A stretch of DNA of 64,000 nt from NCBI RefSeq assembly GCF_000026545.1, contig NC_011601.1. One strand, given 5' to 3'. Below are positions 41,161 to 47,100 of the stretch, in pieces. Positions within the stretch are counted from its first letter, which is position 1. Every line of letters begins with the position of its first letter. The DNA is from Escherichia coli O127:H6 str. E2348/69 (GTDB taxonomy: Bacteria > Pseudomonadota > Gammaproteobacteria > Enterobacterales > Enterobacteriaceae). A program made the position numbers.

Positions 41161-44100
41161 TAACCGCTGATTTAACCGGCGCAGTCTCTCCTGCGCCGGT
41201 GTATTAACCTATCTCCTGTAACGCATGTCTCTGGCGTTCGACGATATTGGTCCACAAATTGTCTTTATCGTCAGTCCACAAATTAATCAGCAAGGCAAAA
41301 AAGCGTTCAGCTGCCGGAGAAAGCACGGCATCTTTGCGGCGAATAATCCCCAATGTCCGACGTATAACGGGTTCCACCAGTGGGATACCAATAATCGAAG
41401 AATAGGGCGCATGGGGCATTGCCAGACCAGGAAGCGCCGAAATCCCCAGTCCCGCCTCCACCAGCCCTAATGACGTCGAAAGATGACGCACTTCGTAAAA
41501 CCAGTCCAGCTTCCAGGGCTTGTCGGCTAGCTGTTGTTCTATCAACAGTCGGTTGCCGCTGGAGGAGCGTACGCCAATCATTTTGTAACCCACTAACTCC
41601 TGCCATTCTACAAGCTGCTTTTTGGCCAATGGATGGTCACGCCGACAGGCCAGCACGAACGGCTCGTTGACCAGTGGGGTAAAATCAATGGATGAATTTG
41701 TGACGTTGTTCATGTTTATGCCAAAGTCTGATTCGTTACACAGCACCGATTCCATGCAATTATTCGTGCCTTGTTCCAGAATCCGCACTTTAATATTGGG
41801 ATACAGCTCATTAAATTTACCGATTGCCAGCGGTAAAAAATAAAATACTGCGGTCGGAATACACGCTAACGTCACCATACCACGATGATAAGCATTCATA
41901 TCACGAATATTAAAAAGCGTTTCATCGAATTTTTTTATTAATTCCCGCGCCTCCGGGAGCAACCTTTTTCCTGCTTTTGTTAACGTAACCTTGCGAGTTG
42001 TACGCTCAAATAGTTGAATGTGTAAATCTTCCTCCATCTTTTTTATTCTTCGCGTTAATGCAGGTTGCGTAATATTGAGTAATTTAGCAGCATTGTTAAA
42101 TGAACTGGACTCTGCCAGTATGACAAATGCCTTCATACTTGATAATTCATGCTTCATTATTACTCCGGAAAATGGAAGCGACGATTTTGGGTGACTGGCC
42201 GTTAAAAATTTTAACTGCATTTAGCCAACTTAAATTAATGAAAAAATGTTATTAATCGTTGAGCTAAAGTCATTAGAGATGCTTTGCCCTTAATGTAACC
42301 ATATCGCAATAAGTTATGTTTTTAAATTGAGGGCATTATTATGAAAAAAATACCCTGCGTGATGATGCGAGGTGGAACCTCGAGGGGCGCGTTCCTGTTA
42401 GCGGAACATCTACCCGAAGATCAAACGCAGCGCGATAAAATATTGATGGCAATTATGGGTTCCGGTAACGATCTGGAAATTGACGGTATTGGCGGCGGTA
42501 ATCCGCTGACCAGTAAAGTCGCCATTATTAGCCGCTCCAGCGATCCGCGTGCAGATGTCGATTATCTGTTTGCTCAAGTTATCGTCCATGAGCAACGTGT
42601 CGATACCACGCCTAACTGCGGCAATATGCTGTCTGGCGTTGGGGCATTCGCCATTGAAAATGGTTTGATTGCAGCGACTTCGCCAGTTACCCGCGTACGT
42701 ATCCGCAACGTCAATACGGGTACGTTCATCGAAGCTGATGTGCAAACGCCAAATGGTGTTGTCGAGTACGAGGGTAGCGCCAGAATTGACGGCGTACCGG
42801 GTACTGCCGCACCGGTTGCGCTCACTTTCCTGAATGCCGCCGGAACGAAAACCGGAAAAGTCTTCCCGACGGATAATCAGATTGATTATTTTGACGATGT
42901 CCCGGTGACCTGTATCGATATGGCGATGCCAGTTGTCATTATTCCTGCTGAATATCTGGGAAAAACAGGCTATGAATTACCGGCAGAGCTGGATGCCGAC
43001 AAAGCATTATTAGCCCGCATTGAATCTATCCGTCTACAAGCGGGTAAAGCAATGGGCTTAGGCGATGTCAGTAATATGGTTATCCCTAAACCTGTACTTA
43101 TTTCTCCAGCGCAGAAAGGCGGGGCAATTAATGTGCGTTATTTTATGCCGCATTCTTGCCATCGCGCTTTGGCGATAACCGGTGCTATTGCTATTTCCAG
43201 TAGTTGTGCATTGGAAGGCACCGTCACCCGACAAATCGTCCCTTCTGTAGGATACGGCAATATCAATATTGAACACCCCAGTGGTGCGCTCGACGTTCAT
43301 TTAAGTAATGAAGGTCAGGATGCCACGACGTTACGCGCATCTGTTATTCGGACGACCAGAAAAATATTTTCCGGTGAAGTTTATCTTCCCTGAAAAATTT
43401 TGTTGTCGTGATAATGATACTCAATAAAGGAATTCTGTATGAGTCATACAGAAAGAACAGGATATTAAATGAATAAAAAATCGTTATGGAAGCTAATTCT
43501 GATATTAGCGATCCCATGTATTATTGGCTTTATGCCAGCTCCGGCAGGATTAAGCGAACTGGCGTGGGTGCTTTTTGGTATTTACCTGGCGGCCATTGTG
43601 GGGCTGGTTATCAAGCCTTTCCCGGAACCTGTCGTACTGTTAATTGCCGTCGCCGCATCGATGGTCGTGGTGGGTAACTTATCAGGTGGGGAATTTAAAA
43701 CCACCGCCGTATTAAGCGGTTACTCTTCCGGTACCACCTGGCTGGTGTTTTCTGCGTTTACTTTAAGCGCCGCGTTTGTAACCACAGGCTTAGGTAAACG
43801 TATTGCCTATCTGCTGATTGGTAAAATTGGTAGCACTACCCTGGGTCTGGGTTACGTTACGGTATTTCTCGATCTGGTACTGGCTCCGGCAACACCGTCT
43901 AACACCGCGCGTGCGGGCGGCATCGTGTTACCGATCATCAACAGCGTGGCAGTGGCTTTGGGATCAGAACCGGAAAAAAGTCCGCGTCGTGTTGGACATT
44001 ACCTGATGATGTCCATTTACATGGTCACCAAAACCACCAGCTATATGTTCTTTACCGCAATGGCGGGGAACATTCTGGCGCTGAAAATGATCAACGACAT

Positions 44101-47100
44101 TCTGCACCTGCAAATTAGCTGGGGTGGATGGGCGTTAGCCGCCGGATTGCCGGGCATCATTATGCTGCTGGTCACCCCGCTGGTGATTTACACCATGTAT
44201 CCACCAGAAATTAAGAAGGTGGATAACAAAACCATCGCTAAAGCGGGCCTTGCCGAACTGGGACCGATGAAAATCCGCGAAAAAATGCTGCTCGGTGTCT
44301 TTGTACTGGCGCTGCTGGGCTGGATTTTCAGTAAGTCTCTGGGGGTTGATGAATCCACCGTGGCAATCGTTGTTATGGCAACTATGCTGCTGCTGGGCAT
44401 CGTTACCTGGGAAGACGTGGTTAAAAATAAAGGCGGCTGGAATACCTTAATCTGGTACGGCGGTATTATCGGCTTAAGCTCCTTATTATCGAAAGTTAAA
44501 TTCTTCGAATGGTTAGCTGAAGTCTTTAAAAATAACCTGGCATTTGATGGTCACGGTAACGTTGCTTTCTTCGTTATTATTTTCCTCAGCATCATCGTGC
44601 GTTATTTCTTCGCTTCTGGTAGTGCCTATATCGTTGCCATGTTACCGGTATTTGCCATGCTGGCGAACGTCTCCGGCGCACCGTTAATGTTAACCGCGCT
44701 GGCACTGTTGTTCTCTAACTCCTATGGCGGCATGGTTACTCACTATGGCGGCGCGGCAGGTCCGGTCATCTTTGGCGTGGGTAATCCTGGTGGTTGGTCG
44801 GTGCGGTACTGACGATATTAACCTTCCTGGTGCATATCACCCTCGGCGTGTGGTGGTGGAATATGCTGATCGGCTGGAACATGCTGTAAATATACTCGTC
44901 ATACTTCAAGTTGCATGTGCTGCGTCTGCGTTCGCTCACCCCAGTCACTTACTTATGTAAGCTCCTGGGGATTCACTCGCTTGTCGCCTTCCTGCAACTC
45001 GAATTATTTAGAGTATATCCATTTATTAGCTTTCTGCGCACTTCACGGTGCGCAGATATCTGGAGTATTTGATGATCAAGTTATCTGAAAAAGGCGTGTT
45101 TCTCGCCAGCAATAACGAAATAATTGCCGAAGAACATTTCACCGGCGAAATAAAAAAAGAAGAAGCAAAAAAAGGCACTATTGCCTGGTCTATTCTCTCT
45201 TCTCATAATACGTCCGGAAATATGGATAAACTTAAAATTAAGTTTGATTCATTAGCCTCTCACGATATTACCTTTGTTGGTATTGTACAGACCGCTAAAG
45301 CGTCCGGTATGGAACGTTTCCCGCTGCCGTATGTGCTGACCAACTGCCATAACTCACTCTGTGCTGTGGGCGGCACCATTAACGGTGATGACCATGTTTT
45401 TGGTTTATCGGCGGCCCAGCGTTATGGCGGTATTTTTGTGCCACCGCATATTGCGGTCATCCATCAATATATGCGTGAAATGATGGCGGGCGGCGGCAAA
45501 ATGATCCTCGGGTCAGACAGCCATACCCGTTACGGTGCGTTAGGGACAATGGCGGTTGGCGAGGGCGGCGGCGAGTTGGTAAAACAGCTGCTTAATGACA
45601 CCTGGGATATCGACTATCCGGGCGTGGTTGCGGTGCATCTGACCGGAAAACCTGCGCCGTATGTGGGGCCGCAGGATGTGGCGCTGGCTATCATCGGTGC
45701 TGTGTTCAAAAACGGTTACGTCAAAAACAAAGTGATGGAGTTCGTAGGTCCCGGTGTTGCAGCGCTCTCTACCGATTTCCGTAACAGCGTTGACGTGATG
45801 ACCACTGAAACGACCTGTTTAAGTTCTGTCTGGCAAACCGATGAAGAAGTCCATAACTGGCTGGCGCTGCACGGTCGCGGCCAGGATTACTGCCAACTTA
45901 ACCCTCAACCAATGGCGTACTACGATGGCTGCATCAGCGTTGATTTAAGCGCCATCAAACCAATGATTGCGCTGCCATTCCACCCGAGCAACGTGTATGA
46001 AATCGACACGCTGAACCAGAACCTGACCGACATTCTGCGTGAGATTGAAATTGAGTCCGAACGCGTGGCGCACGGTAAAGCCAAACTCTCGCTGCTGGAT
46101 AAAGTGGAAAATGGTCGCCTGAAAGTGCAGCAGGGGATTATCGCGGGCTGTTCTGGCGGTAACTACGAAAACGTCATCGCGGCGGCGAATGCGCTGCGCG
46201 GTCAATCCTGCGGCAACGATACCTTCTCGTTGGCGGTTTACCCGTCATCACAGCCGGTGTTTATGGATCTCGCCAAAAAAGGTGTGGTCGCAGATTTGAT
46301 TGGCGCAGGCGCAATCATCAGAACCGCGTTCTGCGGCCCATGCTTTGGTGCGGGCGATACGCCAATCAACAACGGTTTGAGTATTCGCCACACCACGCGT
46401 AACTTCCCGAACCGCGAAGGCTCTAAGCCAGCTAATGGGCAGATGTCAGCGGTGGCGTTGATGGACGCTCGTTCTATCGCTGCGACTGCGGCAAACGGTG
46501 GCTATTTAACCTCTGCCAGCGAACTCGATTGCTGGGACAACGTGCCGGAGTACGCCTTCGATGTAACGCCGTATAAAAATCGCGTCTATCAAGGCTTTGT
46601 GAAAGGGGCGACCCAGCAACCGCTGATCTACGGACCGAACATCAAAGACTGGCCGGAATTGGGCGCGCTGACTGACAATATCGTCCTCAAAGTGTGCTCG
46701 AAGATTCTCGACGAAGTGACCACCACCGACGAACTGATTCCTTCCGGTGAAACCTCTTCTTATCGTTCAAATCCGATTGGTCTGGCGGAGTTTACCCTGT
46801 CACGCCGCGATCCAGGTTATGTTGGCAGAAGTAAAGCGACTGCCGAGCTGGAAAATCAGCGTCTGGCGGGAAATGTCAGCGAGCTGACAGAGGTGTTTGC
46901 GCGCATTAAGCAGATTGCTGGTCAGGAACATGTTGATCCGCTGCAAACTGAAATTGGCAGCATGGTTTATGCGGTGAAACCAGGCGATGGTTCTGCGCGT
47001 GAACAGGCGGCGAGTTGTCAGCGTGTGATTGGCGGTCTGGCGAATATTGCCGAGGAGTACGCGACTAAACGCTATCGTTCTAACGTCATCAACTGGGGGA

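Follow-up and report, generated by a model that had tools for sequence, protein, structure and literature searches.

The ybhI gene of Escherichia coli K-12 (b0770) is 1434 nt long and encodes a 477-aa protein (NP_415291.1), which RefSeq, like EcoCyc, names a putative tricarboxylate transporter. It lies between ybhH and ybhJ and is divergent from the LysR-family gene ybhD, an arrangement shared by strain UTI89, whose YbhI is also 477 aa long (WP_001036491.1). A study of LysR regulators classed YbhI as a putative tricarboxylate transporter with ~35% identity to 2-oxoglutarate/malate translocators, found ybhH strongly up-regulated in a ybhD mutant, with YbhD repressing ybhH, and suggested a possible tie to L-malate utilisation (PMC9068703). 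Our literature search on ybhI, ybhH and ybhJ returned no established substrate for YbhI and nothing linking ybhI to enteropathogenic E. coli (EPEC) biology or to any phenotype.

The corresponding gene of EPEC O127:H6 strain E2348/69 was analysed within a 64,000-nt window of the chromosome (contig NC_011601.1), the coordinates of which are used throughout. The original 2008 annotation named its 447-aa open reading frame (ORF) a "predicted transporter" (CAS08195.1, UniProt B7ULP3). The PGAP entry for ybhI in all three E2348/69 RefSeq records (H4J01_RS17545, BQ9544_RS03650 and BQ9550_RS21755) is a pseudogene, "anion permease, frameshifted", with coordinates corresponding exactly to window 43469-44889; the feature treated here is the same one, without any difference in extent. 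E2348/69 ybhI is an ordinary strain-specific pseudogene that is already known in RefSeq as frameshifted. New here are the exact lesion, a 13-nt deletion between positions 44782 and 44783 without microhomology, and the finding that, of 5,426 complete genomes, only those of E2348/69 carry it. Also new is that the gene, as judged from alignments with its orthologues, is otherwise unchanged, implying a recent event.

Reading frame and deletion junction

The main ybhI ORF of E2348/69 occupies 43469..44812 on the plus strand and encodes 447 aa with the C-terminal end ...GPVIFGVGNPGGWSVRY. Read from 43469, the frame meets an early stop at 44810-44812, right after ...GVGNPGGWSVRY. The gene can be divided into the following features:

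43469..44782, plus strand: ybhI codons 1-438 in the native frame, the DASS / Na_sulph_symp body (ORF, PF00939 match and identity to UTI89)
44782..44783, plus strand: deletion junction, at which the 13 nt TACAACGATATTA are missing relative to UTI89 (pairwise DNA, three-way and K-12 protein alignments)
44783..44812, plus strand: nine aberrant codons (NPGGWSVRY), closed by the premature TGA at 44810-44812 (ORF, translation and protein alignment)
44785..44889, plus strand: stranded native 3' end, codons S444-L477 and TAA, with the last transmembrane helix (translation, C-terminus match, Kyte-Doolittle profile and PGAP end coordinate)

Translation of 44724-44893 in three frames placed the hydrophobic tail WWLVGAVLTILTFLVHITLGVWWWNMLIGWNML and its stop in a frame different from that of the main ORF, ending at 44889. 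The ORF listing of the window contains part of the same segment as a very hydrophobic 31-aa ORF opening with TTG (44794..44889; MVGAVLTILTFLVHITLGVWWWNMLIGWNML). The normal ybhI stop is the TAA at 44887-44889, and the native C-terminus runs up to it out of frame; the premature stop lies 77 nt ahead of it. Past the break the aberrant frame reads AAT CCT GGT GGT TGG TCG GTG CGG TAC TGA, or NPGGWSVRY followed by a stop. The stranded tail corresponds to native residues 445-477 in the protein alignment and matches the C-terminus of both K-12 and UTI89 YbhI at 100%. An initial annotation made from the sequence alone had described this configuration, with a frame ending at 44812 and a hydrophobic tail continuing in another frame to 44889, and the ORFs and the three-frame translation agree with it.

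Alignment with reference genes, which that annotation had proposed, was performed against UTI89 and K-12 and confirmed the frame break. Residues 1-438 of the ORF are 100% identical to UTI89 YbhI and differ from K-12 YbhI at 3 positions, and the whole 447-aa protein is 98% identical to K-12 YbhI in a four-sequence alignment. The gene stands between ybhH and ybhJ and divergent from ybhD, as in UTI89 and K-12, and the order pgl, ybhD, ybhH, ybhI, ybhJ, ybhC is common to the locus. Both this position and the near-identity uphold the naming of the gene as ybhI. The E2348/69 gene differs from K-12 b0770 and UTI89 ybhI in being 13 nt shorter, with its frame shifted after codon 438, and its product has 447 rather than 477 aa and is without the last transmembrane helix. 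The expected length of about 477 aa for an intact YbhI proved correct for K-12 and UTI89, and all 14 of the other listed members of the 90% protein cluster are likewise 477 aa long. No reference YbhI that we considered ended at the position of the 447-aa ORF, so the frameshift stands.

At the nucleotide level, the 214-column alignment of the 3' end (window 44700-44900 against UTI89) contains a single 13-nt gap and 0 substitutions. Where UTI89 has GGCGTGGGT-TACAACGATATTA-AATCCTGG, the window has GGCGTGGGT-AATCCTGG. The bases on either side of the gap are unlike the ends of the deleted segment, which makes the placement between 44782 and 44783 unambiguous and means that the junction has no microhomology. 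Codons Y439-I442 are lost together with one base of K443, at a position where K-12 YbhI retains the residues YNDIK in the protein alignment. The junction also gives rise to a new TAA, seen on translation at 44782-44784, in the frame of the native tail. The break lies within the interval of about 44775-44795 that had been proposed for it, and the indel, the length of which is not a multiple of 3, breaks the reading frame that intact orthologues keep. The proposed size of 1 nt was wrong: the UTI89 alignment shows 13 nt, which in terms of frame is equivalent to -1 and accounts for the earlier reading. The lesion is taken to be a specific one and no chance pattern of ORFs, because apart from it the gene matches UTI89 at 100% over 1601 nt.

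A search near the junction for direct repeats that might explain the deletion by replication slippage found no microhomology. The sole nearby repeat of the deleted segment, ACGATATTAA, has its retained copy at 44812, and slippage through it was rejected as badly positioned for this deletion.

Distribution and reality of the lesion

Window 43400-45000 was compared by megablast with 5,426 complete E. coli genomes. Identity of 100% was found in only three of them (NZ_CP059840.2, NZ_LT827011.1 and NZ_LT903847.1), all of which are EPEC O127:H6 E2348/69 or direct derivatives; NZ_LT827011.1 is "variety 2", and NZ_LT903847.1 is "EPEC1", a construct built from variety 2. The next matches, including UTI89, APEC O1 and IHE3034, were 99.2% identical over 1614 bases against 1601 in the query, a value that for UTI89 is due to the 13-nt gap alone. 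An 80-nt probe across the junction gave gapless matches in the same number of complete genomes (3/5,426), again all E2348/69. Its fourth-best match was 87%, and ~5,316 genomes matched at 86-87%, which indicates that the 13 nt are retained there.

Database entries for exactly this 447-aa protein are CAS08195.1 / UniProt B7ULP3, from the original 2008 deposit of E2348/69, as well as SLM05709.1 and SNU22460.1. Its coding sequence is present on 15 contigs, of which 5 are chromosomes, 9 are drafts measuring 20-50 kb and 1 is a short contig. One draft, GCA_049977505.1, differs from the window by 1 SNP in 4344 nt. All deposits with the lesion either trace back to a single isolate of 1969 or differ very little from it. 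The nearest complete genomes other than E2348/69 are only 99.4% identical over 18.8 kb around the gene, and this 18.8-kb search of complete genomes found no very close relative with which to date the deletion.

In the unrelated genome S115, 1 nt is deleted (AAATCC to AAACC) a few bases from the site, and the gene there is also flagged as frameshifted.

Frameshifts close to gene ends are a common class of artefact, and the S115 deletion near the same site could be an example. A sequencing or assembly error in a strain that actually has an intact 477-aa ybhI is nonetheless scarcely credible for E2348/69. The 13-nt lesion lies in non-repetitive sequence with no homopolymer at the deletion site, and it has been reproduced in four E2348/69 chromosome deposits as well as in draft contigs. 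The same junction is found in CAS08195.1 (2008), LT827011, LT903847, CP059840.2, the 9 draft contigs and the short contig. An identical 13-nt loss in complex sequence across deposits is, on these comparisons, no homopolymer or assembly error. The initial annotation had left the choice between a pseudogenising mutation and a homopolymer error; the recurrence of the junction across deposits favours the former, and the latter can be dropped.

We consider it very probable that the chromosomal ybhI of EPEC O127:H6 E2348/69 was pseudogenised by a genuine, lineage-specific 13-bp deletion. The deletion takes out codons 439-442 along with a single base of codon 443 and shifts the frame by -1; translation then adds nine wrong residues and halts 77 nt short of the native stop. 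The remainder of the ybhD / ybhHIJ cluster is left intact. Since the gene otherwise agrees with intact alleles of phylogroup B2, the event would be recent.

We infer that the loss of ybhI was neutral. Selection for the loss in the E2348/69 lineage, as opposed to neutral decay, is very unlikely: the independent S115 frameshift a few bases away is a weak hint of recurrence, but the lesion is confined to one lineage among the 5,426 complete genomes, the neighbouring genes of the cluster are intact, and no phenotype is tied to ybhI in the searchable literature.

The transport domain and its missing helix

Intact YbhI covers model positions 2-472 of 472 of PF00939 (Na_sulph_symp, the divalent anion:Na+ symporter or DASS family) with E=1.3e-194. 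Residues 4-438 of the truncated ORF match positions 2-436 of the same model (E=3.9e-181), and the score of 603.6 bits against a gathering cutoff of 27 places the product within the family. The E2348/69 allele differs from the family in being without model positions 437-472, the C-terminal helix, and its fold is incomplete to that extent. A Kyte-Doolittle scan with a 19-residue span peaked at 2.28, with its centre at residues 450-460; this segment is the last transmembrane helix, which the ORF lacks.

Solved structures within the family show strong full-length homology to the intact YbhI orthologue, namely chloroplast DiT1 and DiT2.1 (9mcr, 9mcu) and the bacterial DASS symporter LaINDY (6wtw, 6wu1). 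DiT1 (9mcr) aligns with intact YbhI through residue 472 (E=1.4e-83), and DiT2.1 and the bacterial symporter (6wtw, 6wu1) align to residue 471-472. Their alignment through 471-472 indicates that the C-terminal segment is a conserved part of the fold.

Two SNT-type hairpin-tip motifs serve as a criterion for DASS transporters, based on VcINDY-type structures. Both are kept in the truncated ORF, upstream of the break, as PSNT (~143-146; PSNTARAGG) and FSNS (~415-418; FSNSYGG).

The product comprises 438 native residues (92%) and nine aberrant ones. Residues 439-477 are lost, and with them the final transmembrane helix, a conserved feature of DASS-family anion transporters. E2348/69 ybhI is, by these alignments, an incomplete ybhI orthologue and DASS-family member with the terminal helix missing. 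The 447-aa YbhI is most likely non-functional, a prediction made because the last helix of the transport domain is lost and the C-terminus is flipped across the membrane. The truncated protein would probably be unable to fold or insert as a working transporter and, if so, the strain would be without uptake dependent on YbhI, the protein called a putative tricarboxylate transporter.

Residual function was weighed against this prediction. The gene might still work as the 447-aa form, which keeps 438 of the 477 native residues as well as the two hairpin motifs of the substrate site, or the helix might be supplied by ribosomal frameshifting or by the separate 31-aa ORF (44794-44889), the TTG start of which has a weak GGTGG upstream. 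Several observations speak against them: the last helix falls within the Pfam model and is a conserved element from bacteria through to plant DiT1, and the native frame is interrupted by the TAA that the junction creates at 44782-44784. No slippery heptamer of the form X XXY YYZ occurs in the 44785-44809 overlap, and virtually no other E. coli has the frameshift, so that the site is no conserved recoding site. A functional gene in any of these forms is highly improbable. Programmed ribosomal frameshifting itself was rejected in view of the missing heptamer in 44785-44809, the stop in the target frame and the absence of the frameshift from >5,300 other genomes. If the 447-aa YbhI, possibly together with the 31-aa tail peptide, did still insert and transport or have an altered activity, for which we see very little likelihood, E2348/69 would have a natural "minus-TM11" or split DASS transporter and not a dead gene.

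Neighbouring genes and use of the junction

Around the E2348/69 ybhI, the genes pgl, ybhD, ybhH, ybhJ and ybhC are annotated as intact. The start of ybhJ lies 182 nt beyond the native ybhI stop. Polarity of the frameshift on ybhJ should be negligible, because the premature stop is only 77 nt early and ybhJ has its own start.

The analysis confirms that behind the RefSeq flag "frameshifted" in this widely used EPEC prototype stands a real 13-bp loss and not a sequencing error. Studies of ybhD/ybhHIJ in E2348/69 should expect a defective transporter in a cluster that is putatively tricarboxylate- or malate-related (PMC9068703). The lesion otherwise has very little importance past bookkeeping. 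Its junction, unique among the 5,426 complete E. coli genomes, is a convenient marker specific to E2348/69.

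Repeat geometry and a second, apparent frameshift in ybhI

In intact ybhI alleles, ACGATATTAA is present twice, in copies 39 nt apart. The first copy lies within the segment deleted from E2348/69 and the second at window 44812 (44812-44821); in contrast to intact alleles, E2348/69 retains a single copy, the downstream one. A simple repeat-mediated deletion via ACGATATTAA was considered as the origin of the lesion, but fits poorly with the geometry of the copies.

An apparent 1-nt deletion in ybhI (AAATCC to AAACC) was observed in E. coli S115 (NZ_CP158441.1; positions 1601-1692 of its sequence stretch, L010), a few bases away from where the E2348/69 deletion lies. 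S115 is a urinary isolate unrelated to E2348/69, its ybhI deletion is independent, and PGAP likewise labels the gene 'frameshifted'. The frame outcome, -1, equals that of the 13-nt loss in E2348/69.

Over window 30000-48800, E2348/69 has 18,801 nt against 18,826 nt in the nearest non-E2348/69 genomes, and the gal-mod-ybh region therefore holds approximately 12 nt more of indel difference beyond the 13-nt ybhI deletion.

ERIC element downstream of ybhI

The ybhI-ybhJ spacer is largely occupied by a repetitive element that begins directly 3' of the ybhI stop codon:

44890-45018, enterobacterial repetitive intergenic consensus (ERIC) element, with ERIC primer matches and a terminal inverted repeat

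Both classic ERIC primer sequences match exactly within it at window 44955-44976 (+) and 44933-44954 (-), and its termini form a 26-nt imperfect inverted repeat. The element also accounts for the multiple hits of the 1601-nt BLAST query, whose median number per genome was 5.

Prophage and insertion sequence loci

A prophage begins directly after ybhC and extends to the end of the window:

~48891-64000 (approximate), lambdoid prophage

Its genes include those for an integrase, an excisionase, a Rad52-type recombinase, an anti-RecBCD protein and an N antiterminator, together with an S24 peptidase (repressor-like), CII and NinB/E/F. Since ybhB adjoins ybhC in K-12, the prophage site appears to be the lambda attB region.

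Near mngR, two further features were annotated:

~8201-8533, shortened fructose-type PTS IIA fragment ('missing C-terminus'), adjoining mngR and the ISEc13 gene
~8697-10070, ISEc13 (IS4-like) transposase gene

The flank of ISEc13 opposite the PTS IIA fragment carries a solitary 'methylaspartate mutase subunit S' gene. The locus (window ~8201-10070) has the appearance of an IS-mediated disruption or rearrangement.
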